Below are positions 12,514-26,654 of a stretch of DNA of 64,000 nt, piece after piece. The stretch spans positions 1 through 64,000 of IMG/VR virus record IMGVR_UViG_3300042509_002293; one strand, written 5' to 3'. This DNA comes from a virus. The stretch's first letter is position 1, and every line of letters begins with the position of its first letter. The notes under the pieces were generated by a model. The model made no database searches. It was not told the DNA's origin and saw nothing but the letters and a program-made list of their open reading frames with translations. The position numbers were made by a program, and so were the translations under genes.

Positions 12514-14118
12514 GTTCTACTTCGACGAAGACAAGGCCGCCCACGCGGTCCAGTTCTTCGAGCAGTTCCTGACCCACTCCAAGGGTCAGTTCGCCGGGAA
12601 GCCTTTCTCGCTCCTCTCCTGGCAGAAGCATGACATCATCGAGGAGCTTTTCGGGTGGATGCGGGTCGACACCGACACCAGGAAGTTCCGGGTCGGCTAC
12701 ATCGAGGTGCCTAAAAAAAATGGCGTCTTGGCCCCTGCGGCTGGTTGCCGTGGGGGCCAAGACGACCATCAGGAAAGTCAACTCTCCTCAGCGGCATAGG
12801 CCTCTACACCCTAGTCGCCGACGGCGAGCAGGCGGCCGAGTGCTTCGGGTGCGCGACAAGTCGTGAGCAGGCCTCGATCGTCTACAAGCAAATGAAGGAA
12901 CTGGTCCAGGCCAGCCCCTACCTCTCCGAGATGCTGGAGGTGGTCGACTCCAGGAAGACCATCGCCTACATCCCCACGAACAGCTTCTGGAAGGTCATTT
13001 CGAGTGACGCCGGACGCCAGGAAGGCCTCAACATCCACTCGCTCTGCTATGACGAGATCCATTCCGCCCGTGACGACAGGCTTTGGCGCGCCGTCCGGTA
13101 TGGTGGAATTTCCAGAGCCCAGAGCCTCATCCTCGCCATTACGACAGCCGGCGTGGACCGGAACTCGATCGGCTACGAACTGCACGACCACGCCATGAAG
13201 TGCCGGCTCGACCCGCACTACGACGAGCAGTTCTTCGCCTTCGTGGCGGCAGCGGCCCCCGAGGACGACTACCGGGACCCGGAAGTCTGGAAGGCCGCCA
13301 ATCCTTCCTGGGGCGTGACGATGGACGAGGAGTCCTTTCGGGCTGACGTCCGGGACGCCGAGCAGTCCAACGCCCGGCTCGCCAGCTTCCTCCGATACAG
13401 GCTCAATGTCTGGACACAGGGAGACGGCAACAAGTACATCCGGCTCGACCAGTGGGACCAGTGCAAGGGCCCTTCGGGGCACCTCGGACCCGAGCGGGTG
13501 TGGTACGCCGGCCTCGACCTTGCCCAGACCTGGGACTGCAACGCCTTCGTGGCCGTCAGCAAGGGGCCGGACGACGTGTTCGACGTGCTCTGCCGGTTCT
13601 GGATCCCAGGCGAGAATGCAGGCCTTCGTTCCCAGAAAGACGGCGTGCCCTACACGCTGTGGGCGAAGGAGGAGAAGAACGGCCTGACGCTGACTCCGGG
13701 AAACACCTGCGACTACTCGTTCATCAAGCGGGACATCCTCCAGTTCTGCAAGGAGCGGACCGTCCGCCTGATCGCGGTCGACCCCCACAACAGCCACTAC
13801 CTCGTCCAGCAACTTCAGGCGGAAGGCCTGAGTGTGCAAGGATTTTCACAAGGGTTCGCCAGCATGAACCCTGGCACGAAACTTTTGAGCACCCTGATCG
13901 CTCAGGGCCGCCTGCGGACCAACGACAACCCCATCCTGAACTGGATGGCCGGAAACGCGACGACCAAGGAATCCCCCGAGGGCTACGTCAAGGTGGTAAA
14001 GCCAAGTGCCATGAGCCCTCTGAGGGTTGACGGGATTGTCGCCCTCATCATGGCTACCGCCATTGCGAACGAGGCTCCGGCTGCGGTCGCTGCCGAGCCG
14101 GAGATCCTGATCCTATGA
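12446..14118 (+). CDS. terL: Terminase large subunit, split over two frames by a 50-nt hairpin in Walker A (exact start uncertain)
   Basis: Frame A: L..WQ...LFGW...YIEVPKKNG; frame B: GKSTLLSG...DEIH...ITTAG...ANPS...GLDLA...DGIVA. Confidence 0.9.
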
Positions 14119-17100
14119 GTCGAGAAGAGAACGCCGCACTCAGCGACATTGTCTGGACACCCGCACGGGGCGAGAACGAGCCGGAGCTTCGCAGCATCTC
14201 CTGGAACAACCTCCTCCTCTCGGACGAGGTGTTCGGCGGGAAGTTCCTGACTGCCGCCGAGATTCGGATCAATCCGGAGACTGCGCTTCAGTCGACCGTG
14301 CTCCTGGCCTGCTGCCGGATCCTCGCCGAAACGGTTTCGGTCCTTCCCCTCCACGTCTACCGGAAGCTCAAGAACGGCCACGAGGAGATTGCCGAGGACA
14401 TCCCCCTGGCCCACGTCCTCGGGTTCGCTCCCAACGGGTGGCAGACGAAGTTCGAGTTCTTCGAGCAGGTGATGATGAACCTGACTCTCTGGGGGAACTC
14501 CTACACCGAGATCAAGTCTGGCAAGTACGGGTCCGTCACCGAACTGAACAACCTGCACCCGAGTAACATGCGGGTCGAGCGGCTGGAGAACGGCCGGCTC
14601 AAGTACACCTACAACGACCCGCAGACTGGTCGGGCCCTGGAGTACACCCAGGATCAGGTCATGCACATCCGCTGGACGCCCCAGCCGGATGGCGTGAAGG
14701 GCATGATGCCCGTCGAGATCGCTCGCGACGCCATTGCCCTGGCCCGCGCGTGCGAAATCTACGCCTCGAAGTTCTGGGCGAACATGGGCCGCCCCGGCGT
14801 GGTCCTCCAGACGGATGGCGCCATCTCGGCGGAGACGGCCGAACGCCTCCGGGACAACTGGGAGCGAATTCATAGAGGCGTGTCCAACGCCTATAAAACC
14901 GCGATCCTCACCAACGGGCTCCGCGTCGAACAGTTCGGCGCCACGAATACCGACAGCCAGTACCTCGATGTAAGAAAATTTCAGGGCGAGGAGATCGCGA
15001 GGTGCTACCGGTTGCCGTTGCACCTTATTCAGGGGCAGTCGGGCGGCAACCTGGAAGTCCAGGGCCGCGAGTTCGTCGACTACACGCTCATGCCCTGGCT
15101 CGCCCGCATCGAGCAGGCGATCAGTCGGTCGCTCATCTACGACGACGCCACCTACAAGGCCCGCTTCGACGTGCGTGGCCTGCTCCGTGGGGACAGCGCG
15201 AGCCGGGCGAGCTACTACTCCACGATGATGGGGCTCGGGATTTTCTCGATCAACGACGTGAGGCGACAGGAGGGGATGGCCCCGCTTGGACCCGACGCCG
15301 ACAAGCACTTCGTGGCGATGAACCTCCAGACGCTGGAGGACGCGGTCAAGCCGAAGCCCGACCCCTCGCAGATGCCGGGCGCTCCGCCCCCCGCCCCTGG
15401 CGGCCCGCCGAGCCTGCCCGAGGTCAAGCCCGGGAAGGCTCCGATGGAGTCACCCAAGGGCGAGGCCTCGGTGAAGAAGCTCCCGGAGAAGGCCTCGGCC
15501 GAGGCTCGCGAGCTACTGCCCCAGGACGAGAAGCTCGAAGAGGCTCAGCAGGAGATCGCGGAGGAGGACGGGAAGTGGGAGAAGGAAGCGGCCCACTACA
15601 TCGAGAAGAACCCGTTCGCCGCTCGTGGCATCAAGTGCCACAACTGCACGCACTACTTCGAGGAGGCCGGGTGCAAGATCGTCCGTGGCCTGATCGCGGG
15701 CGACGCGATCTGCAAGCTGTGGGTGATCCCGCCTGAGAAGATCGCCCCGGAGCCCGAGCAGCGGGCGTTCTGCCCGACGGGAGAGGGCAACGGCATCAAG
15801 AATGACTGCTCCCCAGGCGGCAGCTATCCGGTGGCCGACTCTATGCCTCGCGAGGTCGAGGCTGGTCACCCAGCCCTCGCCGCGAGAGCGCCGTTCAGTC
15901 CGGTTCCAGAGGGCAGTGGGAACTCAGCCTTTGCCGTGCCTCCGTCTGACTCGGACCTGTCTCAGGCGTTGATTGGGTCGAACAAGACGAAGGGCACGAA
16001 GATCGGCAAGGCCAGGGAGCTTCCGGAAGGGACTCCTGTCGCCCTTCGCATCGACATCCCGGCGTTCAATCACTCAACCGAGAGGATGGGGAAGGCGGTA
16101 TACGCCATCACCATTCACGAAGACAAGGGCGGCAAGTCGTTTGGCAGCCCGATCGGATACGACTCGATGGCCCGCCTCTCCGGACCGGTCAGGTTTGAGG
16201 CGAAAGAGAACGAAGCCATCCGCGTGGCGACAGGCGAGTCCACGAAGACACCTCTCGCGACCGTGAAAGGCAAGATTTCGCAGGATCGCACGATCCCGAA
16301 GGACGTGGATTCGTGGACCCCTGTCGGGTACGACCCGAAGAAGGCCGCCTACTTCTACGACAAGAGGACCGGGCAGGAGGTGAAGAGCGGAGTCGACGCA
16401 CTGAGCGTCGGCAATACGGTCTTCACCCGCAGGCCACAGTACGGCGACCGCAACGTCAAGGAGCACTACCGCTCCGCCGACGAGATGTTCGCGAGCGACT
16501 CGTGGGGCCTAGAGTCCCGTGGTTTCTGTCCCACTGGAGAGGGCGGCGGGATCGACAACTCTTGCGGTCGCGGAGACTCGTCAGGAGGAGACTCGCCCGA
16601 CGGGCCCGAGCCAAAGCGTGCCTCCACTCGCGAGGTCCTCGATGAAATCCTTCGGAGCATCGAGGAAACCGGCGGATATTCGGTTCACCCAGTGACGGCC
16701 GAGAGTCCCACGACCGGATTCATGTGTTCGACGGTCCCAGGTGCCGAGAAGATTATCGACGGCAAGGATCAAGTCACCGAGGCGGTCGTCGACGCCTACT
16801 TCGATGAGCACCGGGACTACCTTTCTTCGCGGCCGAAGCTACACTTAGGTGGTTGGATTGACGGGTCTGACGGGAAGGTCTACCTGGACCTCTCGGAGAG
16901 GTTTGAGACGCAGGAAGAGGCCGAGAAGGCTGCGGTCGAGCACAACCAGCTTGCGATCTGGGACATCGCCAACAAGAAAGAGATCAGGATCAAGAATGAG
17001 CGAGCAGCCGAAGAAGATGGTGAGGTTCGACTTCAAGCCCGGCGCGACCTCGAAGGAGATCGCCGAGGCGATCGAGCGGGCCAGGAAGAAGGTCGTTCAG

Positions 17101-20100
17101 GAGTACGCCGAGGCGAAGGCCAAGGCGGATGCGGATCGCCAACTGGGCGAGTAGAGTCTCGCGAAGGCTCGGACTGCGGCCGAGACGACGGCGGAAAGTT
17201 CGGCCCTGGCAACAAGTGCCAGGAGGACGCCGGAGACGGCGAGCAGGAGTCCAGTGGCGGCGACACTGCCACTGCCACTCTGGCGCCGCCTCAGGTCCAC
17301 CCCGGCTCGCCGTCTCACGAGGGCCGCGTCTCTGCTCTTACGACCGGCTCCCTGCTGGACGGAAGCGAGCGTCTTGACGTCCCGACGATCCGTGGCCGTG
17401 TCCTTGAGACCGACCTGTCTCAGGCACTGACCCAGCGGGCCATCGCGGCCCACGGCGGAAGGGTCATCGACATAAACGACCGCGTGAGCGACGCGGACAT
17501 GGACGTCTGCTCCGACGCGCTGGCCGAGGATCTCGACCGGGCCGCAAAGGACCTCGGGCGTCATTCGGGCTGGTACTCCGAGGACGTTGGCCGGGCTGTT
17601 GAAATCGCCAGGAGCATGCCCGGGAACGAGAAGATCGGGGACGGCACTCGCGACGGCGAGCTTCACGACTTCGTTTTCAGCACGGCCCTCGGGATTCTCT
17701 CCCAGGAAAACACGGTCCCACAGAATGCCCGATACGCAGACGCGATGTATCGGAACTGGGTTCAGACCGGCAGCCTGATCATTCCCGAGGAACACCACTC
17801 GGCCCTGGGAAGAAGCTTCAACGCAAAGGCATTCGAGGTCGTCCAGACACTCGCCGACAGGCATGGGTGGGACGACGTGATGAAGTTCTTCTCCAAGTCC
17901 GACACTGTCGGGAACCTCGTGAAGACTGCCAACACGATGCTCCCCGACTCGCCGTACTCGCTCGGCGTCAGCAATGAACTCGTGTCGACGCGGGTGCCGA
18001 CGTTCGCGCTGTTCGGCCCCAAGATCGGCGCCTTCACCCATGCAGTCGCCAACCGGGAGCGAGCCGACGATGCTTTTGACTTTGTGGTCAAGGATCGGTG
18101 GCTCATGCGTCAGGCTGGCTCCATCTTCGGGACTCTCATGTCGCCGACGGACGGGGAGAAGTCGTCCGAGCATATGTCGAGAGTCCTGGATAGCATCAAG
18201 GGCCTTCGCACAGGAAGCCCCCTCCTTCACGGCCTGAGCGCTTCGGAGGTCAAGGCGAGCCTCCAGGAGGCCATCCGGCTGAAGACAACGCCGGACGACG
18301 ACTCCCCCGCGATGGAGTACATCCGGAGGACGGTCAAGGCTTACGCGAAAAGCTCAAGCTCGACAAACTCCACATACGCCGACAAGACTGAGCGGAATCT
18401 CGCGGCCAATAACGCCTTCAAGAACAGAACGCAGATCCTGATCGCCCCAGGGAACGGAACGCAGTCACTAAACCTTCACCGTCTCTTCGAGGAGGCGGCG
18501 AAAAAGTCTGGACGAGGTAACGTCTGCGAGGCGCAGGCGCTTGGGTGGGTGGACACGCAGCGTCTCTGGCAGAGCCTGGGCTATAAGCTGAAGACTCCGC
18601 CGGATCAGAATACGTTTAGCTCCGCGTTCTCTGCGCTCGCGTCCGGTAGGTCGGCCAGCGGAAGAATCACGGACATCGCAGCGGAGGCGGAAAGGCAACG
18701 CCGCGAGGCGGCACAGGCCAGCGGCAGGAAGTCTCGCCGAGACGCCACTGGCTCGGATGAGTGGGATTCCACCCGGGACATCAATGCAATCGGAGAGGAT
18801 CCGCAGATTCTTTTCAACGAGTCGCTGAGCGATCCTGATACCTTTAATGCGTTGCTTGAGCACATCAGCGCGTTGATCTCTCGCGACTCCTCGTCCGAGC
18901 GTCGCGCCTTCTGCCCCACCGGCGAAGGCGGCGGTGTGAAGAACGACTGCCCCCCCAGCGAGGGCGGCAGCGGTGGCGACGAAGATGACGACAAGGGCGG
19001 AGACATCGCAAAGGCTGACGATGACTCTGGGCCTCGCCCATCCTCCGGCCCCGAGATCAAGATCGGCGACAAGCCCGAGGAGATCGACCGCCGCCTGGAG
19101 GCTATGGGCATCAAGCAGGACGACGCCATCGGCATGGTGGGCGGAAGCCGCGACGGAACCTACGTCTTCGTCCGCCGCGACCACGATCGCGACGGAGGCG
19201 ACGGCCTCCACATTGAGACCACCCGCGACGTGGCCGGCGTGAAAGACGGCCTGTTCAGCCAGTCCGTCGTCTACAACGCTGGCCCGCCGCAGTCGCCTGA
19301 GCTTGTCGTCGATCACAAGCTCATGGACGTGAAGACCGACGTGAGCCGTGACCCCGAGAAGAGGCACGCCGCCGCTCGCGAGTTCTTCCGAATTATGACC
19401 GACAGCGTTCAGGAGTCGCTCAAGCGAGGAGTCTCGAAGATCACGCTCAACGCCGCCGGCGACCCCAAGCAGGCCCGCGACGGCATGTTCCGTGGGTACA
19501 CGATCTGGCCCCGGATGGGATTCAACGCTCCGATCCCGAACCACATCCGCAACAAGCTGCCGCCCGACCTGGGGCACTGCCGCACCCTCCTCGACCTCCA
19601 CGCGACCCCGGACGGAACGCGGTGGTGGAAGAAGAACGGCACGGACCTCGACGTCCAGCTTGACCTGACCAAGGCCGACAGCCCGCAGATGCAGGTCTTC
19701 GGTCGGTTCGTTCGTCACTTCGAGCGTGACCGCCGAGACCTTGCCTATGGGACCGGAGACGAATGGCTCTCGCCGGCCGACGAGGTCAAGCTCGACGAGT
19801 TGTGGCAGGAGGTCTGGGACGAGGGCCTGCTCGACGACTACACGGGCGAGGACGAAGACTTCAGGGTTTTGGAGAAGCGGGCCTTCTGCCCCACCGGCGA
19901 AGGCGGCGGGGTGAAGAATGACTGCTCGCCAAACGACGAAGGTGGCGGCGATACGGCCACGGCCCCCAGGCCGAACACTATGCCTAAGGCGAAGTACGAC
20001 GACCCCAGGAACAAGGAGTCGTGGCTGAGCACCGGAGGGGATTTTCACCCGTTCGATCGGGCGAAAGAGCCGGCCGATCGACTGAAGTCTCCGATCGGCT

Positions 20101-21284
20101 TCAATACCCACGACTTCTGGGCCAAGAAGCACGGCGTGGACGGCGGAGAGCCCGAACTGCTCGGCAAAGGCTGGATGCGGGTAACTGCTTCTGGCCGAAC
20201 GCTCTACCTCAGCAACTCCAGCGGCAATCCCCCGACCGATCGCCAGCGAAAGGTTGCGATTGACCACGCCATCGCGACGGACAAGTACGACGACATCGTC
20301 TTCGATGCCGGCTACGGCAAGCAGCCCAGGACGATCTGGAGCAAGAGGTCGAAGAAAGTACGAGGCGAGTCTCGTGCCTTCTGCGCGACAGGCGAAGGCG
20401 GCGGAATCGACAACTCGTGCGGCGCCGGCGAGAAGATGGCCGCCGACAAGGACTCCGGGGGCGGATCTTCTTCTCGATGGGGCGGGAAAGAGGAGAAGTG
20501 GGGCCGATCGAGCGAGACAGAAATCTGGACTCCGGGCAAGCCGCTCTTCCCCGGGGCCGAGAGCCTTGCCTCCATCAAGATCACGAGGCCAAACGACGTC
20601 CGGGGCATCATCGAGGACGGCCTGAAGATGAAGATTGCGGACGCCGTACTGGCCTCTGGCCCGGTAGCGGATTCCGCAGATCGATCGAGCATCACCCGCC
20701 CTCGGCTTGAGATTGTCCCAACCGGCCACGGCATCGAGATGCGGTGGACTTCAATGGGCGTCGCCACCGGAGAGGGCTTCAAGGGCGAGGAGGAGCAGTT
20801 CAAGAGTCAGCCGGGGACCGCCGTGAAGGCTGCCGCAGCCTCTCGCGACCTCTGGATCACGAATCAAGGGCCGGTCCTTAACATGGGCGGATTCTTCATT
20901 CATCCAGACTTCCAGGGCAAGGGCTTGGCGCTTGAGTCTGTGGCCAAGTCGTCGTCCTCGGGCGTCATCCGCATGGAAATGCAGGCCGAGCGATTTGATG
21001 CGGATGACCCGAATCTTCGCATGACCGGATACAAGGTGTGGCCGAAGTACGGATACGACGCCCCACTCTCTCTCGTCCGTGGGACTCTGAGGTCTCAGGA
21101 CCAGGAAATCCCCAAGGAATTTTCTGGTGCCAGGACTTTGGCCGACATTTTCCGCATGCCGGGCGGCCGTGAGTGGTGGTCCCAAAGCGGCGATTCGATC
21201 CGGCTCGTCTTCGACTGCCGCCCCAGAAGCAAGAGCGTCGAAACTCTGCTAAAATTGCAGGACCGTTACCGCAAAGGGAGGTAG
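14115..21284 (+). CDS. HK97-family portal protein (about first 410 aa) fused to about 1950 aa of cargo domains
   Basis: AC.RILAETVSVLPL...PN..QT..EF...GNSY...HIR...EIAR.Y..P..L...L.PW..RIEQ...LLRGD...NDVR..E; frame stays open for 2389 aa. Confidence 0.9.
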   Translation: MSREENAALSDIVWTPARGENEPELRSISWNNLLLSDEVFGGKFLTAAEIRINPETALQSTVLLACCRILAETVSVLPLHVYRKLKNGHEEIAEDIPLAHVLGFAPNGWQTKFEFFEQVMMNLTLWGNSYTEIKSGKYGSVTELNNLHPSNMRVERLENGRLKYTYNDPQTGRALEYTQDQVMHIRWTPQPDGVKGMMPVEIARDAIALARACEIYASKFWANMGRPGVVLQTDGAISAETAERLRDNWERIHRGVSNAYKTAILTNGLRVEQFGATNTDSQYLDVRKFQGEEIARCYRLPLHLIQGQSGGNLEVQGREFVDYTLMPWLARIEQAISRSLIYDDATYKARFDVRGLLRGDSASRASYYSTMMGLGIFSINDVRRQEGMAPLGPDADKHFVAMNLQTLEDAVKPKPDPSQMPGAPPPAPGGPPSLPEVKPGKAPMESPKGEASVKKLPEKASAEARELLPQDEKLEEAQQEIAEEDGKWEKEAAHYIEKNPFAARGIKCHNCTHYFEEAGCKIVRGLIAGDAICKLWVIPPEKIAPEPEQRAFCPTGEGNGIKNDCSPGGSYPVADSMPREVEAGHPALAARAPFSPVPEGSGNSAFAVPPSDSDLSQALIGSNKTKGTKIGKARELPEGTPVALRIDIPAFNHSTERMGKAVYAITIHEDKGGKSFGSPIGYDSMARLSGPVRFEAKENEAIRVATGESTKTPLATVKGKISQDRTIPKDVDSWTPVGYDPKKAAYFYDKRTGQEVKSGVDALSVGNTVFTRRPQYGDRNVKEHYRSADEMFASDSWGLESRGFCPTGEGGGIDNSCGRGDSSGGDSPDGPEPKRASTREVLDEILRSIEETGGYSVHPVTAESPTTGFMCSTVPGAEKIIDGKDQVTEAVVDAYFDEHRDYLSSRPKLHLGGWIDGSDGKVYLDLSERFETQEEAEKAAVEHNQLAIWDIANKKEIRIKNERAAEEDGEVRLQARRDLEGDRRGDRAGQEEGRSGVRRGEGQGGCGSPTGRVESREGSDCGRDDGGKFGPGNKCQEDAGDGEQESSGGDTATATLAPPQVHPGSPSHEGRVSALTTGSLLDGSERLDVPTIRGRVLETDLSQALTQRAIAAHGGRVIDINDRVSDADMDVCSDALAEDLDRAAKDLGRHSGWYSEDVGRAVEIARSMPGNEKIGDGTRDGELHDFVFSTALGILSQENTVPQNARYADAMYRNWVQTGSLIIPEEHHSALGRSFNAKAFEVVQTLADRHGWDDVMKFFSKSDTVGNLVKTANTMLPDSPYSLGVSNELVSTRVPTFALFGPKIGAFTHAVANRERADDAFDFVVKDRWLMRQAGSIFGTLMSPTDGEKSSEHMSRVLDSIKGLRTGSPLLHGLSASEVKASLQEAIRLKTTPDDDSPAMEYIRRTVKAYAKSSSSTNSTYADKTERNLAANNAFKNRTQILIAPGNGTQSLNLHRLFEEAAKKSGRGNVCEAQALGWVDTQRLWQSLGYKLKTPPDQNTFSSAFSALASGRSASGRITDIAAEAERQRREAAQASGRKSRRDATGSDEWDSTRDINAIGEDPQILFNESLSDPDTFNALLEHISALISRDSSSERRAFCPTGEGGGVKNDCPPSEGGSGGDEDDDKGGDIAKADDDSGPRPSSGPEIKIGDKPEEIDRRLEAMGIKQDDAIGMVGGSRDGTYVFVRRDHDRDGGDGLHIETTRDVAGVKDGLFSQSVVYNAGPPQSPELVVDHKLMDVKTDVSRDPEKRHAAAREFFRIMTDSVQESLKRGVSKITLNAAGDPKQARDGMFRGYTIWPRMGFNAPIPNHIRNKLPPDLGHCRTLLDLHATPDGTRWWKKNGTDLDVQLDLTKADSPQMQVFGRFVRHFERDRRDLAYGTGDEWLSPADEVKLDELWQEVWDEGLLDDYTGEDEDFRVLEKRAFCPTGEGGGVKNDCSPNDEGGGDTATAPRPNTMPKAKYDDPRNKESWLSTGGDFHPFDRAKEPADRLKSPIGFNTHDFWAKKHGVDGGEPELLGKGWMRVTASGRTLYLSNSSGNPPTDRQRKVAIDHAIATDKYDDIVFDAGYGKQPRTIWSKRSKKVRGESRAFCATGEGGGIDNSCGAGEKMAADKDSGGGSSSRWGGKEEKWGRSSETEIWTPGKPLFPGAESLASIKITRPNDVRGIIEDGLKMKIADAVLASGPVADSADRSSITRPRLEIVPTGHGIEMRWTSMGVATGEGFKGEEEQFKSQPGTAVKAAAASRDLWITNQGPVLNMGGFFIHPDFQGKGLALESVAKSSSSGVIRMEMQAERFDADDPNLRMTGYKVWPKYGYDAPLSLVRGTLRSQDQEIPKEFSGARTLADIFRMPGGREWWSQSGDSIRLVFDCRPRSKSVETLLKLQDRYRKGR
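16996..17154 (+). CDS. Overprinted small ORF (52 aa) inside the portal gene
   Basis: MSEQPKKMVRFDFKPGATSKEIAEAIERARKK reads as a natural protein while the portal frame here is R/G/E-rich, like an off-frame read. Confidence 0.55.
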   Translation: MSEQPKKMVRFDFKPGATSKEIAEAIERARKKVVQEYAEAKAKADADRQLGE

Positions 21285-21286
21285 GC

Positions 21287-21475
21287 ATGGGCGACGAAAA
21301 GATCGGCTGCGATTCTGACCGGGACGATGCCGTTGACGCGGCGTGGGAAGAAATCCAGAAGGAGGGCCTGACTGGCGAGTCACCGACTCAGGAGGAGTGG
21401 GACCGCTGGGCGGCCGAAGCCAACGAGAGGAAGAAGGCCAAGGATGGCAACGCCGGAGAAGTACAGTCACATTAG
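21287..21475 (+). CDS. Small acidic protein, possible inhibitor of the terminal GNAT domain
   Basis: GGGAGGT RBS; DDAVDAAWEEIQKEGL resembles DEVKLDELWQEVWDEGL after the first GNAT domain. Confidence 0.65.
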   Translation: MGDEKIGCDSDRDDAVDAAWEEIQKEGLTGESPTQEEWDRWAAEANERKKAKDGNAGEVQSH

Positions 21476-23042
21476 CTTCACGCCCCCGTCGGGGGTTCGC
21501 AGGGAAGCGGAGTACGGACTGAAGCTGCGTCGCGAGCATGGCCGTGGCGGCACCGCCGTCGGCATCGCCCGCGCCCGGGATCTGTCGAACGGCAGGGAGG
21601 TGTCGCCGTCGACCGTCAAGCGAATGAAGGCCTACTTCGATCGCCACGACTCGGACCAGCAGGCCGAGGGTTTCAATCGCGGCGACAAGGGCTGGCCCTC
21701 CAACGGCTATATCGCCGCCAAGCTCTGGGGCGGATTCCAGAGCGGCTATTCCTGGGCAAAGAAGGTCGTCGCCCAGATGGAGGCCGCCGACGGGAAGGAG
21801 TCGTCTCGCTCTTATAGTCCGGATACGGAAACCCGTAGCCTGAACGGCATGGAAACCACCGAAAGCCGATTCGTCGCCACCGACACGCCTGAGCCCGAGG
21901 CCACCGAGATGCCCCAGGTCGAGCGGCGGTATCTGGCCTCCGCCGGTACTGAGAGCTCAACCGAGGGCACGCTCGGCGTCGAGCACCGCGCCGACCCGCA
22001 GACGGGCGAGAGGCGGACGTACCTTGTCGGGTATGCGGCAAAATTTGGAACTGACTCTTTGCTGCTCGGGGACTTCATCGAGCAAATTGCCCCGTCCGCA
22101 TTCGAGATCGTCACCAAGGGAAAGGACCTCGAAGGAAATCCCCTAGAGACTCGCGGCCTTTTCAATCACGACCCGAACCACCTCATCGGTCGGTTTCCGA
22201 ACACGATGAAGCTCACGGTCGACAAGATCGGCCTGAAGTACGAGATCCTCCTTCCCGAGAGTCGGCAGGATATCGCCGAAATGGTAGCTCGCGGGGACCT
22301 CAAGGGATCGAGCTTCAGCTTCGTCGTGGCAGAGGGCGGGGAAAAGTGGACCCGCGAGGGCGGCAGGAGCCGCCGCCTCGTCACCCGCATCAAGTCCCTC
22401 CTGGATTGTGGCCCCGTCACATACCCGGCCTATAAAAATTCTTCCGTTGCCGTCGCCAAGCGGAGCTACGAGCAGTTCATCTCGGCGCAGGATCCGAAGC
22501 CAGCCGAGCCGCTGAAGCCGAAGACCGACGTCGCTGCGGAGATGCGGAAGTACCAGGAGTTCATCGCCGAGCGACGCGGCTTCTGTCCGACGGGCCCAGG
22601 CGGCGGCGTCGACAACTCGTGCGGCGCGTCCGCCAGTGGTGGAGATTCCGGAAAATACAAAGAGTGGAAGAAGGGCGATCACCTCGACAAGTCGAAGGAG
22701 AAAGACGCCCAGGACTTCCTCGATAAGGCCCGAACTGACCAACTCGCCCGTGGTGGCAAGGACGGCGGAAAGTCCGACGACGGCGGCGGCGTGCAGACCT
22801 GGAGCAAGGGCGACCACTTTCCCTGGACGGCCAAGCAGGTCGGCGACACCGACGGCTACGTTCAGGGCCTGCACCCGGATGGAAGCAAGACGGAGAAGTA
22901 TCCGTTCGCCGGCGGCAAGACGGCCGACGCCTACGCGAAGCTCTCCGAGGAGTTGAAGGGCCGGGTCAAGAAGGACAAGAGGTCCACCGATCCGTCTGCC
23001 GTCGCATCGGAGATGCTGAGGTTCCTCAAGGACCGCCGGTAA
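21444..23042 (+). CDS. HK97-type prohead protease with N- and C-terminal extra domains
   Basis: GYAAKF...F.EQIAPSAF...LFNHD...GL.YEI...RGD..GSSFSF...VTYPAY; N-terminal GT.VG.ARARDL...RM.AYF.RH...LWGG domain; C-terminal CPTG tag. Confidence 0.9.
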   Translation: MATPEKYSHISFTPPSGVRREAEYGLKLRREHGRGGTAVGIARARDLSNGREVSPSTVKRMKAYFDRHDSDQQAEGFNRGDKGWPSNGYIAAKLWGGFQSGYSWAKKVVAQMEAADGKESSRSYSPDTETRSLNGMETTESRFVATDTPEPEATEMPQVERRYLASAGTESSTEGTLGVEHRADPQTGERRTYLVGYAAKFGTDSLLLGDFIEQIAPSAFEIVTKGKDLEGNPLETRGLFNHDPNHLIGRFPNTMKLTVDKIGLKYEILLPESRQDIAEMVARGDLKGSSFSFVVAEGGEKWTREGGRSRRLVTRIKSLLDCGPVTYPAYKNSSVAVAKRSYEQFISAQDPKPAEPLKPKTDVAAEMRKYQEFIAERRGFCPTGPGGGVDNSCGASASGGDSGKYKEWKKGDHLDKSKEKDAQDFLDKARTDQLARGGKDGGKSDDGGGVQTWSKGDHFPWTAKQVGDTDGYVQGLHPDGSKTEKYPFAGGKTADAYAKLSEELKGRVKKDKRSTDPSAVASEMLRFLKDRR

Positions 23043-24850
23043 TGAGTGCCGCGACGGACTGCCGGATCGCGAGCCTGCACGCCTTCGCCCAGGCGAGGGC
23101 GATGGGATCGGCGACGAATGCAGGTGGCGGAGCAGTCTCCGGCGGAGCCGACTGCGGGCGGGATTCGGACGGGAAGTTTGGCGCTGGCAACACCTGCCGC
23201 ATCGGAATCAATATCAACGACTCTACCCAGGCCTTCACGACGCAGATTCTTGCCGGCCAGAAGACGATCGAGACTCGGCCAACAAACTCGCTTCGCCCCT
23301 ACGTCGGCAAGACGGTCGGAATCGTTCGGACTGGCCAGGGCAAGGCCACGCTCGTGGGCACGATGAAGATCGGCGAGCCTAAGTTCTACAAGACGAAGAA
23401 AGACTTCGACGCGGACCGCAAGAAGCACCTCGTCTCCCCGGGCAGCCCGCACTACATCACGGCCGCCGGGAAGTACGGTTACCCTCTCTCCGAAGTGCGT
23501 CCCGTAAAGCCCATCGAACTCGACACGAAGGGGATCGTCGGGAGGGTGATCGCGAAGTCGAGCCGCAGCGAAGAGCTTGAGTATGACCTAGATGGAGTTG
23601 AGCTTCGCGCATTCTGCCCCACGGGCGAAGGCGGTGGACTCGACAACTCATGCGGCAGCGGAGAGACAGCCTCTACGCCGCCGGAAAAAACTCAGAAGCC
23701 AAGATGGATGGGTGCCGTAGACGCGGCGGGTGAGACCAAGCACGGAACGTGGTTCCTGGAGAAGAACGAAGACGGGAGCAAATCGCCAGGACACGACGAA
23801 GCCACGTCCCACGTTGTTAGCCTTGTTGGCGGCAAGGATGAGGTTAAGGCGTTCGTGTTTGCTGACGCTCACGATGATCGTCTCTACATCAACTACTCTC
23901 AGGTTGCGGAGCCTCATCGCGGCAAGGGAGTTTACAAAGAGCTTCTTTCGTCGCTGCAAGAGCAATTCACGATTCATTCGGACGAACAGCACAACGTCGC
24001 CACCGCCGCAAAAAAGGCTTACGAGTCGCTCGGCGCGAGGCTGAATCAGTACGGGCAGTACGTCCTCGAACGGAAGCGTCGCGATTCTCGCGGCTCATCC
24101 CTCGGCGCTCGCCACGCCAGCCTCCTCGCCTTCGCCCAGTCTCGCGACTGCGGGCGAGACCCGGACGGCAAGTTCTCGTCCGGCAACACCTGCGCCGGTG
24201 GAGTGGCCGCAGACGCCGCCAAGGGGGCCATCAAGGGCGCCGCCGAGGGCGGGCTGCTCGGCCTCTGGGTTGCTGGCCCCCCGGGGGCCAAGACCGGTGC
24301 GGTCGCTGGGGCCGCTGTCGGGGCCGCGAAGGGGATCTACGACAATCAGATGCGGCCGACCCGCGTGAAGAAGGCGATCGACAGGCTCGGCCTCACGGAC
24401 CAGAAGGTCGGGAGGCTTGTCGAAAAGCTCGGCGGCACCCCGGAGTCGTCGGCGAACGCGAAGCGAGGCGTTCTGACCCTCACGATTCGAGACAAGGACA
24501 ACAAGAAAACCTTCCACGTCGAGGTCACGAAGAAGGGCGTCACCGTGTACCCCAGGCGGGCAACCGGGGAGTTGAGCGGCAAGGAGATCGCCCGGATCAA
24601 GCAGGTCGCGAAGGACCTGTCCCCGCGCCCGGTCAGCGTCACAGTCAAGCAAAGCTCGTCCGCCTATGTGGCCAAGCTCGTGAAGAGCGGCTTCAAGGTG
24701 ACCGCCGGCAAGGTTGCCGGCACGCTCGTCGCGAACTATGTGGTCCCGACGGCGATTGGGCTTGCGGTCACCGCCTCGGAAGGGGCGGCGGCCGCAGCGG
24801 GAGTCGCGGCGGCCAAGGTCGTCGCCAAAATTCCGAAGAAGCGTTCGTAA
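23042..24850 (+). CDS. Head-associated multidomain protein (ASCH + GNAT + tag motifs)
   Basis: ILAGQKTIETR (ASCH GxKxxExR); VAEPHRGKGVY...KKAYESLG (GNAT); one CPTG and two DCGRD tags. Confidence 0.75.
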   Translation: MSAATDCRIASLHAFAQARAMGSATNAGGGAVSGGADCGRDSDGKFGAGNTCRIGININDSTQAFTTQILAGQKTIETRPTNSLRPYVGKTVGIVRTGQGKATLVGTMKIGEPKFYKTKKDFDADRKKHLVSPGSPHYITAAGKYGYPLSEVRPVKPIELDTKGIVGRVIAKSSRSEELEYDLDGVELRAFCPTGEGGGLDNSCGSGETASTPPEKTQKPRWMGAVDAAGETKHGTWFLEKNEDGSKSPGHDEATSHVVSLVGGKDEVKAFVFADAHDDRLYINYSQVAEPHRGKGVYKELLSSLQEQFTIHSDEQHNVATAAKKAYESLGARLNQYGQYVLERKRRDSRGSSLGARHASLLAFAQSRDCGRDPDGKFSSGNTCAGGVAADAAKGAIKGAAEGGLLGLWVAGPPGAKTGAVAGAAVGAAKGIYDNQMRPTRVKKAIDRLGLTDQKVGRLVEKLGGTPESSANAKRGVLTLTIRDKDNKKTFHVEVTKKGVTVYPRRATGELSGKEIARIKQVAKDLSPRPVSVTVKQSSSAYVAKLVKSGFKVTAGKVAGTLVANYVVPTAIGLAVTASEGAAAAAGVAAAKVVAKIPKKRS

Positions 24851-25053: not shown

Positions 25054-25181
25054 TGTTGTGTCACACAACACTTTTTTCTTGGCCCTCTTCGGGCAAGTGA
25101 TCGCCTCCTTTTAGGGTGAACGTGTGGCCGCTGTTTTGCGGTCGCCACACGAAACACACACCCGCAAGGAAGCGATCACAG

Positions 25182-26654
25182 ATGGAAGCCTCCGCCAAGG
25201 TCAAGCAGCTTCTCGACGAACTGGCCGCCGTTCTCGCAGAGATGGGCGCCCTCCAGGAGCAGGGCGACATCGAGGACACCGAGGCCGGTGACGAGATGGC
25301 CGAGAAGGCCGGCATGGAGGAGGACGAGACCGAAGCCGAGTCCCCCGAGCAGGTCGCCGAGGAGGAGGAGGCGAAGGAGAAGAAGATTCGCTGCCTCTGC
25401 GAGCGTGCCGAGAAGATCCGCGACCGCATCAAGTTTTACGAGTCTGTGGCCGCCAAGGAGCTTGAACTCCGAACGGTCCTGGACAAGGCGACCCCCGCGT
25501 CGGAGGCCGCCGTCGTTTCTCGAAACACCCCGGCCAAGGAGGGCCGTTCCGTGACGCAGATTTATCACAACCTTCCCGGTGCCGGTCGTCTCCGTGGTTT
25601 CCGTGGCCCGAACGCCGAGGAGCGTGCCTATCGTGCTGGCATGTTCTACAAGTCGGCCCTGTTCGGCGACCGTGAGGCGACCCGGTGGTGCGCTGACCAC
25701 GGCGTGATCGACAGCCGCGCGATGGGCGAGGGCGTCAACTCGCTCGGCGGCGTGAGCGTGGCCGAGGAGGTGCTCAACGAGATCATCGTGCTGGTTGAGC
25801 AGTACGGCGTGTTCGTTCAGAACGCCCGCAACGTGAACATGCAGTCGGACACCCTCGTGGTGCCTCGGCGAGTTGGCGGTCTCCAGGCCTATTTTATTGG
25901 CGAGAACACGAGCATCCCGGATTCCGACGCGAGTTGGGATCGGGTTCAGCTTATCGCCAAAAAGGTGGCTGTCTCTAATAGGATTTCTTCGGAGCTTTTG
26001 CAGGACTCCGTACTGGCTTTGGGCGATTATTTGACTATGGAGACAGCAAGGGCCATTTCGATCCTCACGGATCGCGTGGGCTTTGTGGGCACGGGCTCCG
26101 GCGAAGACGGTGGTATCGTCGGTGCCGCGACGAAGGTCGCTGACGGCAGCCACAACGCCGGCCTCGTGACGGCCGCGACCGGCAACACGTCGGCTACGAC
26201 CCTCACGATCGACGACTTCGTGAACACCGCAGCCCGTCTCCCCGTGTACGCACGGGCTCGGGCCGCGTGGTACTGCTCGCCCGCCGTGTTCGCGGCCAGC
26301 GTGCAGCGTCTCGGCCTGACCAACAACGGCAAGCTGACGGGCGGCAACAGCGCCTCGAACCTCGCCGATGCTCCCGAGATGCGTCTGCTCGGATACCCTG
26401 TGAATTTCGTGCATACGATGCCGAGCAACCTGGGTGTCGATGCCGGGAAGGTGCAGTTCCTGCTCGGCGACCTCAGCCTCAGCACGATGTACGCGACCCG
26501 TCGCGGCCTCCAGATCAAGACCTCGGTCGACCGCTACGCGGAACTCGACCAGACCCTGATCGTGGCGACCACGCGTTTCGACGCGGTGACGCATGACTGC
26601 GGCGACAACACGAAGGCTGGCCCGCTCGTTGGTCTCCGCACGGCTCTTTCTTGA
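25182..26654 (+). CDS. Major capsid protein (HK97 fold) with N-terminal delta domain
   Basis: Acidic coiled-coil N-terminus; R|AMGEG...GG..V; IGE...IP.SD; IS.ELLQDS; LLGYPV; GDLS. Confidence 0.9.
   Translation: MEASAKVKQLLDELAAVLAEMGALQEQGDIEDTEAGDEMAEKAGMEEDETEAESPEQVAEEEEAKEKKIRCLCERAEKIRDRIKFYESVAAKELELRTVLDKATPASEAAVVSRNTPAKEGRSVTQIYHNLPGAGRLRGFRGPNAEERAYRAGMFYKSALFGDREATRWCADHGVIDSRAMGEGVNSLGGVSVAEEVLNEIIVLVEQYGVFVQNARNVNMQSDTLVVPRRVGGLQAYFIGENTSIPDSDASWDRVQLIAKKVAVSNRISSELLQDSVLALGDYLTMETARAISILTDRVGFVGTGSGEDGGIVGAATKVADGSHNAGLVTAATGNTSATTLTIDDFVNTAARLPVYARARAAWYCSPAVFAASVQRLGLTNNGKLTGGNSASNLADAPEMRLLGYPVNFVHTMPSNLGVDAGKVQFLLGDLSLSTMYATRRGLQIKTSVDRYAELDQTLIVATTRFDAVTHDCGDNTKAGPLVGLRTALS

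Follow-up and report, generated by a model that had tools for sequence, protein, structure and literature searches.

Phages are known to pack into their capsids enzymes by which the host is disarmed within seconds of the onset of infection, and how such packaged enzymes stay harmless or stable until delivery has been little studied. In phage T4, the internal proteins and Alt carry capsid-targeting sequences, are trimmed by the gp21 prohead protease and are injected together with the DNA. In 2017, Iyer, Burroughs, Anand, de Souza and Aravind (PMC5512222) reported polyvalent proteins of phages that contain GNAT domains and fusions to portal or MuF; GNAT is among the effector domains listed there, often beside ART domains, and two RimI-like GNAT families are recognised. 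Here we analysed the first 64 kb (64,000 nucleotides, hereafter the window) of IMG/VR virus record IMGVR_UViG_3300042509_002293, which comes from a 96-kb uncultured phage and is estimated to be 98% complete. The polyprotein P0001 of this phage begins with a portal domain and contains two GNAT-like domains, the first of which is followed in frame by an acidic peptide with a tryptophan (the W-helix) and the second by a separate small gene that encodes a similar peptide. We lean towards the reading that P0001 is a polyvalent protein fused to the portal and carries two paralogous GNAT-fold cargo domains, and that each of them has an acidic, detachable W-helix which would bind its own domain and mask or stabilise it during assembly and storage.

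Like the polyvalent proteins of PMC5512222, P0001 joins many unrelated enzyme domains in one putatively virion-associated polypeptide of a phage with portal-terminase packaging. Behind a complete portal domain at its start (Pfam Phage_portal, residues 64-387, E 2.9e-94, with matches to PHROG portal families as well), a repeated cysteine-loop motif (the Cys tag) marks off at least six further segments, within a module that runs from the large terminase (TerL) over portal and protease to the capsid protein. The GNAT-like domains and their helices lie within the last three tag-bounded segments of P0001 and the small open reading frame (ORF). The Cys tag is a feature of the window phage that is not described in PMC5512222, since the words cysteine and linker are absent from that paper, and we found no description of a partner helix there either. 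The module of GNAT domain and W-helix has no family in the searched databases (Pfam, NCBIfam and PHROG) and is set among the known polyvalent phage proteins.

The initial annotation of this stretch had proposed two paralogous GNAT-like cargo domains with cognate acidic inhibitor peptides, once fused and once free, as in polymorphic toxin-immunity pairs. The paralogy holds, with a BLASTP E-value of 5e-11 and 27% identity over 102 residues, and all the strings it quoted lie where it had placed them: in domain 1, GYTIWPRMGF starts at nucleotide 19494 and GTRWW at 19614, and in domain 2, FQGKGLA lies at 20910-20930, GYKVWPKYGY starts at 21027 and GREWW at 21165. When domain 2 was searched against the whole phage record, domain 1 was the only match (E 2.5e-9). 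The family to which both belong has an invariant G-Y-x-x-W-P-x-x-G-[YF] where alpha4 and motif B of a GNAT are expected, and after alpha4 a family-specific C-terminal extension of about 80 residues with a GGREWW motif followed by F-D...P-G-S-x-S. Motif A (R/Q-x-x-G-x-G/A), the loop that binds the pyrophosphate of coenzyme A (CoA), is present in domain 2 as FQGKGLA. When aligned with solved GNATs such as puromycin acetyltransferase (E 0.005) and YncA, the profile of the family places this stretch on their motif A, and four of 33 small homologs weakly match Pfam Acetyltransf_1 (E 1e-4 or worse). Most likely, domain 2 is an acyl-CoA-dependent transferase that acts on a host molecule.

Because no curated sequence model matched the two domains, alignments were built from metagenomic relatives and two AlphaFold2 (AF2) structure predictions were made, one of domain 1 with its tail (alignment A2) and one of the domain 2 ortholog from the related locus L003 (model B; alignment A3), which is 64% identical to the window domain 2 and has the tail fused in frame. 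The mean predicted local distance difference test score (pLDDT) and the predicted template modelling score (pTM) were 85.3 and 0.85 for domain 1, and 88.7 and 0.86 for the L003 ortholog. The GNAT fold is a mixed alpha/beta fold with the order beta1-alpha1-alpha2-beta2-4-alpha3-beta5-alpha4-beta6. VIA wide, a structural search independent of Foldseek that covers 48,161 representative chains, returned only GNAT-fold proteins among the best 50 rows for either model, with 1yre at the top for domain 1 (Z 7.0, root-mean-square deviation 4.2, 134 residues aligned) and 4ua3 for the domain 2 ortholog (Z 6.9, root-mean-square deviation 4.2, 151 residues aligned). The rows of Foldseek against the PDB were weak (best E 3e-3 and 4e-3) and nearly all acetyltransferases, including TacT, AtaT, KKT23, NatD, p300/CBP, the GNAT-like domain of ICL2 and nourseothricin acetyltransferase. 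These predictions support a GNAT-like fold for both domains, as had been proposed; a Z-score below 8 is not strong by itself, so the argument rests on the uniformity of both match lists.

The acidic peptides were likewise found where they had been reported, one in frame behind domain 1 and one in a separate gene behind domain 2, as read from the translation and the ORF. Compared directly, the two peptides of the window are alike only weakly (E 0.007 over 22 residues), and their similarity stands out at the level of the family. We counted the motif [LIVM][DEN]x[LIVMAF]W within 80 residues downstream of homologous domains with at least 40 residues following them, and found it in 105 of 235 domain instances (45%), compared to 33 of 4513 control windows from the same proteins (0.7%). 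The motif lies at a median offset of 22 residues downstream of the domain, its contexts include proteins less than 30% identical to the window's domains, and the 27-residue stretch around it has a net charge of about -5. The helix follows the consensus L-S-x-E-D-x-x-x-L-D-x-[VI]-W-x-x-I (of the x-x-I-L-D-x-I-W type in the motif contexts), and the corresponding tryptophan of the domain 1 model, W255, is kept in at least 90% of the A2 rows. Where it is fused, the helix stands 15-45 residues downstream of the domain; more than half of the family lacks it. The W-helix is a detachable partner, separate from the GNAT fold, and domain and helix form a two-part module.

The small gene behind domain 2 starts with an ATG three bases past the TAG stop of the polyprotein (21282-21284) and encodes a product of net charge -10 that contains the W-helix DDAVDAAWEEIQKEGL at 21323-21370. 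This product matched no Pfam or NCBIfam family. Aligned with the C-terminal 62 residues of the L003 polyprotein, it shows 55% identity (E 2e-17), and in most relatives (P0006, P0010, P0013, P0016 and others in the series P0006-P0022) such a tail is fused in frame to the last domain. Judged from these alignments, the small gene is a split-off ortholog of the polyprotein's C-terminal tail. The last codons of the tail overlap the start of the protease gene in the window phage and in the fused relatives, which explains the conserved C-terminal residues of the tail. An assembly error as cause of the split was ruled out, as the identical 62-residue ORF was called on 13 contigs and the split is therefore real. 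We also considered a programmed -1 frameshift that would join the polyprotein to the small ORF, which lies in the -1 frame and is open from 21173. This was rejected in favour of separate initiation, because the zero-frame codons of 21201-21284 contain no slippery heptamer of the form X XXY YYZ and because a GGGAGG and an ATG are present.

A word-based search of proteins of 34-109 residues with the small protein returned the query alone and no diverged free homolog; the split forms came from reading the DNA downstream of domain genes. Among the 26 distinct domain ORFs in the fetched loci that end at the core, the motif was present just downstream in seven, the window and locus L078 included, compared to none of 26 in the reverse-complement control. 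In five other distant phage loci (L014, L024, L029, L039 and L077) a separate W-helix gene of 44-73 codons directly follows the domain gene, with its ATG at the upstream stop codon or, in L077, within about 35 nucleotides of it, and these split genes are preceded by a purine-rich, Shine-Dalgarno-like stretch that is clearest in L014, L024, L039 and L077. By this reading of the loci, the helix is a separate protein in at least six lineages, including that of the window phage's domain 2. Repeated fusion and fission of domain and helix is classical evidence that the two work together, and the fused tails in relatives and the separate genes in the five loci bear out the view of the peptides as cognate partners. 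In L078 (3210-3462), the motif stands in another frame and overlaps the last 80 codons of the domain ORF, which could reflect a frameshifted assembly or another mode of expression. P0062 was rejected as a second split lineage, since it proved to be a piece of the window phage; in P0063 (68% identity), too, the chain ends directly behind the domain.

That the similarities reflect chance or composition and that the small ORF is not a gene, for which only the weak pairwise similarity of the two peptides speaks, is next to inconceivable in the light of the family enrichment (45% versus 0.7%), the orthology of the small ORF to the fused tails, the strong ribosome-binding site in front of it and its identical recurrence on 13 contigs.

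The likeness to polymorphic toxin-immunity pairs is a part of the initial annotation that found little support. In such pairs the immunity protein is separate and stays in the producer, whereas here the peptide is fused in 105 of 235 instances and in most domain 2 orthologs and split in a minority; with the peptide in cis in most members, domain and peptide would be delivered together, and the comparison fits poorly. Moreover, more than half of the homologous domains have no peptide, and a late phage protein has no obvious need to protect the cell that produces it. The GNAT toxins of type II toxin-antitoxin systems (TacT-TacA, AtaT-AtaR and GmvT; PDB 7ak7, 7ak8, 7ak9, 6gtr and 9ils) share the GNAT fold and are neutralised when a short peptide of the partner protein binds to them. 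It could be argued that the GNAT domains of the window are toxic and that the peptides protect the producing cell: the tRNA-acetylating toxins TacT and AtaT, with their antitoxin C-terminal peptides, are the top Foldseek rows of domain 1, the peptide is acidic (net charge -10) and the domain 2 core mildly basic (+4), and the free gene lies directly downstream. We consider such a strict toxin-immunity or toxin-antitoxin system very unlikely. Matches to TacT and AtaT do not go beyond E 3e-3 and Z 5.1-5.9 in VIA wide, which is weak, and many non-toxin GNATs are tied with them. Unlike in TacAT and AtaRT, the partner lies downstream, has no DNA-binding antitoxin domain and is mostly fused in cis and hence co-delivered, and in place of an autoregulated two-gene operon the setting is a virion cargo chain, with the small gene placed behind a late structural gene of 7 kb and overlapping with that of the protease; such late phage genes act in a cell that is already doomed.

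How the module might reach the host is suggested by its position. A portal is a dodecamer with its C-termini facing the capsid interior, from which about twelve copies of the cargo chain per head would follow. Packaging in the virion and delivery are read from the in-frame portal fusion, by which some twelve cargo chains would be built into each head, and the description of the domains as cargo agrees with their place in tag-delimited segments of this polyprotein in the head module. The cargo part of P0001 is split by the repeated motif R-A-F-C-P-T-G-E-G-G-G-x-x-N-x-C at residues 553, 805, 1600, 1925 and 2090, whose main (first-type) form is CPTGEGGGxxNxC, and by a variant (second-type) tag, CGRDxDGKFGxGNxC, at residue 1021. 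The same Cys tags occur in the protease P0003 (residue 381) and in the third head cargo protein P0004 (residues 38, 192 and 370). In these three head proteins a tag stands before every cargo domain and is itself preceded by a conserved E-x-R: among 154 distinct first-type tags, E is found at -5 in 113 and R at -3 in 145, and the second-type tag has E-S-R at -6 to -4. In the 35%-identical locus L087, found in the metagenome scan, a second-type tag comes after the helix, which is fused there.

The conserved E-x-R is a candidate cut site of the prohead protease. The strict pattern E-x-R-[SAG]-[FLIVM] occurs 11 times in four head proteins, seven times directly before a tag, and the EGRSV at residue 142 of the capsid protein coincides with the expected delta-domain boundary, the end of the scaffold-like N-terminal part. 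In addition, R-[SAG]-[FLIVM] is found in 35% of the linkers between domain and helix, compared to 16% of controls. On the basis of these three observations we propose that the S78 protease would cut after the Arg of the E-x-R sites and so free the cargo segments. In domain 2 orthologs, a linker site of this kind (e.g. K-K-S-R-S-V) falls where the chain of the window phage ends and the small gene begins, and the free small gene may be regarded as the genetic equivalent of a cleavage product. The cargo would then be delivered with the DNA, after probable cutting at E-x-R sites by the protease encoded next to it. In being packed in the head, trimmed by a protease and co-injected, as we propose, the cargo resembles Alt and the internal proteins of T4. 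It differs from them in being covalently fused to the portal, to the protease and to a third head protein, and in that the candidate cut site is an E-x-R before a Cys-loop tag and the protease is of the S78 rather than the S77 type.

Within this scheme, the helix would bind its own domain, in cis or in trans, and mask or stabilise a surface of the enzyme during assembly and head storage, and the pair would separate on processing and ejection of the cargo. The domain 1 model has a helix at residues 245-261 (pLDDT about 85-92), and in the L003 ortholog model a low-confidence linker (294-299) is followed by two helices at 305-317 and 326-340 (pLDDT 92-96); these models suggest that the fused tail helix packs on its GNAT domain. 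A stronger version holds that a divergent GNAT enzyme is kept inactive by its own W-helix in the manner of a zymogen, the linker being cut by the prohead protease at an Arg-Ser-type site or the helix being made separately, the pair parting as it is threaded from the capsid, and the enzyme becoming active only in the newly infected cell. This version we regard as possible, though improbable, and we are equally reserved about the W-helix as a true inhibitor of the GNAT domain, plausible as such a role is.

Several findings weigh against our preferred reading, in which a partner helix accompanies a packaged GNAT domain. A high pLDDT of an amphipathic helix is no proof of docking. Comparison of the core columns of domains with and without a helix was dominated by phylogeny and pointed, weakly, to the family-specific C-terminal helices and not to the catalytic cleft, the hints being at positions 221 and 277 of model B; cores with a helix were not clearly more basic than cores without one (median net charge +3 versus +2). 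The structural matches are moderate, with VIA Z-scores below 8 and Foldseek E-values no better than 3e-3, and neither window domain matched a curated GNAT model, in Pfam even at E 10 or in NCBIfam even at E 1. In neither domain could catalytic residues, the catalytic Tyr included, be assigned. Domain 1 has no motif A glycines: KRHAAAREF stands at the aligned position and is kept in all its orthologs (alignment A2), for which reason domain 1 may be a degenerate or re-purposed copy. Next to these points, no PHROG model matches either GNAT-like domain.

The hints from the core columns bear on a different explanation, namely that the W-helix is an optional structural appendage that packs on the extra C-terminal helices and serves stability only, the small gene being a neutral fission kept by its close coupling to the upstream gene. 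The helix indeed follows a family-specific helical extension (helices 271-287 and then 305-317 of model B), core position 277 is hydrophobic in domains with a helix and polar in those without (a weak signal), and most copies of the helix are in cis. Conversely, more than half of the homologous domains do without it, the linker between helix and core is of low confidence and resembles a protease site, and repeated independent fissions, each of which kept a ribosome-binding site, favour a separable unit. We therefore take a purely structural role to be a minor possibility, to be kept in mind all the same.

Short acidic amphipathic helices often act as docking motifs, and the W-helix might in this way be a targeting or adaptor peptide that does not bind its own domain but tethers it to another component, such as the capsid interior, the protease, a scaffold or a host target; besides this general consideration, the terminal tail adjoins the protease gene and overlaps its start. 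This we find distinctly unlikely, as the motif accompanies this one domain family in many architectures that are unrelated, while other parts of these polyproteins seldom contain it (0.7%), packaging is already guaranteed by the portal fusion, and the single-chain AF2 model places the helix confidently (pTM 0.86).

The pairing of domain and helix is conserved in many phages. A HMMER scan of 1.84 billion representatives yielded 1183 relatives of domain 2 at E<=1e-3, corresponding to at least that many clusters at 50% identity from metagenomes; many of these are 1000-3900 residues long and contain several domain copies, and many others measure 100-400 residues. Close relatives are polyproteins of 1300-3000 residues on viral contigs of 90-98 kb, some annotated as portal and some with ART or MuF domains. 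Relatives carry 2-4 domain copies per chain, and also ART-PolyVal (PF18760), ADPrib_exo_Tox (PF03496) and Phage_Mu_F (PF04233). Structural matches in BFVD were mainly uncharacterised proteins of uncultured phages, including one head-morphogenesis (MuF) protein and one RadC-like polyvalent protein, and the ESM Atlas returned clusters named hypothetical protein only, one of them with 20% Acetyltransf_1. Among 50,697 deposited phage genomes, tblastn with domain 2 or with the family member P0195 gave no match, nor did megablast of the locus against GenBank phages.

A mobile-element GNAT by which a defence protein of the host is disabled is the anti-CRISPR acetyltransferase AcrVA5 (PDB 6iuf), which is among the matches of both models (Z 5.0 and 5.1), no better than dozens of other GNATs. 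Unlike the window module, AcrVA5 is a minimal GNAT of 95 residues that is expressed after entry, is not packaged and has no partner helix. What the present locus adds is a defined pair, a domain of about 190-290 residues and a peptide of about 20-60 residues, that was repeatedly fused and split in evolution. Should the helix regulate the enzyme, it would represent a simple, portable switch for effectors that are delivered with the virion; otherwise it keeps its use as a marker in the annotation of this cargo family.

The head module of the window phage lies on the plus strand between 12.7 and 26.7 kb, in the order TerL, portal fusion, small ORF, S78 protease, 602-residue cargo protein and major capsid protein. 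The coordinates of its genes and of the features discussed above are collected in Table 1.

Table 1. Positions in the window of the head genes, the Cys tags and the parts of the GNAT-helix module
Feature	Position	Strand	Basis or remark
Large terminase (TerL)	12745-14118	+	Head module
Portal-polyprotein gene P0001, 2389 residues	14115-21284	+	HK97-type portal domain, then about 1900 residues of cargo domains
Cys tags 1 and 2 of P0001	15771-15809, 16527-16565	+	Motif scan
Cys tag 3 (CPTGEGGGVKNDC), preceded by ERRAF	18912-18950	+	N-terminal boundary of GNAT-like domain 1
GNAT-like domain 1	18951-19886 (P0001 residues 1613-1924)	+	Paralog of domain 2
Predicted GNAT-fold core of domain 1	19041-19724	+	AF2 model m7af73500c9e5; KRHAAAREF in place of R/QxxGxG/A
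Acidic W-helix of domain 1 (DEVKLDELWQEVWDEGL), fused in frame	19779-19829	+	Model residues 245-261
Cys tag 4, preceded by EKRAF	19887-19925	+	Motif scan
Unrelated 152-residue cargo domain between the two GNAT-like domains	19926-20381	+	Also conserved in P0006, a close relative
Cys tag 5 (CATGEGGGIDNSC), preceded by ESRAF	20382-20420	+	Motif scan
GNAT-like domain 2	20421-21281 (P0001 residues 2103-2389)	+	Family core about 20718-21275
Shine-Dalgarno GGGAGG, 5 nucleotides before the small-gene ATG	21276-21281	+	Sequence read
Small gene, 62 residues	21287-21475	+	ORF with ATG (21287; stop ends at 21475) and Shine-Dalgarno
Prohead serine protease S78 (P0003), extended at both termini and with a Cys tag of its own	21444-23042	+	Pfam Peptidase_S78, E 2.5e-29
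602-residue protein (P0004), third head cargo protein	23042-24850	+	Head module
HK97-type major capsid protein	25116-26654	+	Head module

For the cargo domain that separates the GNAT-like pair, Pfam gave no match up to E 10. Elsewhere in P0001, a four-Cys segment (CHNC...C...C; 15636-15713, residues 508-533) adjoins the portal domain ahead of the first tag, and residues 843-962 (16641-17000) match PHROGs 17808 and 3170, both of unknown function, which are the sole PHROG hits beyond the portal part. The N-terminus of the protease (21444-21790) forms a conserved extra domain of about 115 residues with the motif KYSHI(S/N)F..PP that matches PHROG 2859, of unknown function, and has a counterpart at 4016-4120 of L003; in both phages the protease start codon overlaps the end of what lies upstream, the tail in L003 and the small gene in the window phage. 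P0004 contains a GNAT-like segment of a more canonical type (HRGKGVY; Pfam Acetyltransf_7, E 0.067) as well as an ASCH-like one, neither of which belongs to the GNAT family studied here, and its end is formed by hydrophobic stretches rich in Gly and Ala. In L087, a distant locus, modules of the P0004 type follow the domain 2 ortholog in one chain, which indicates that modules are shuffled between chains.

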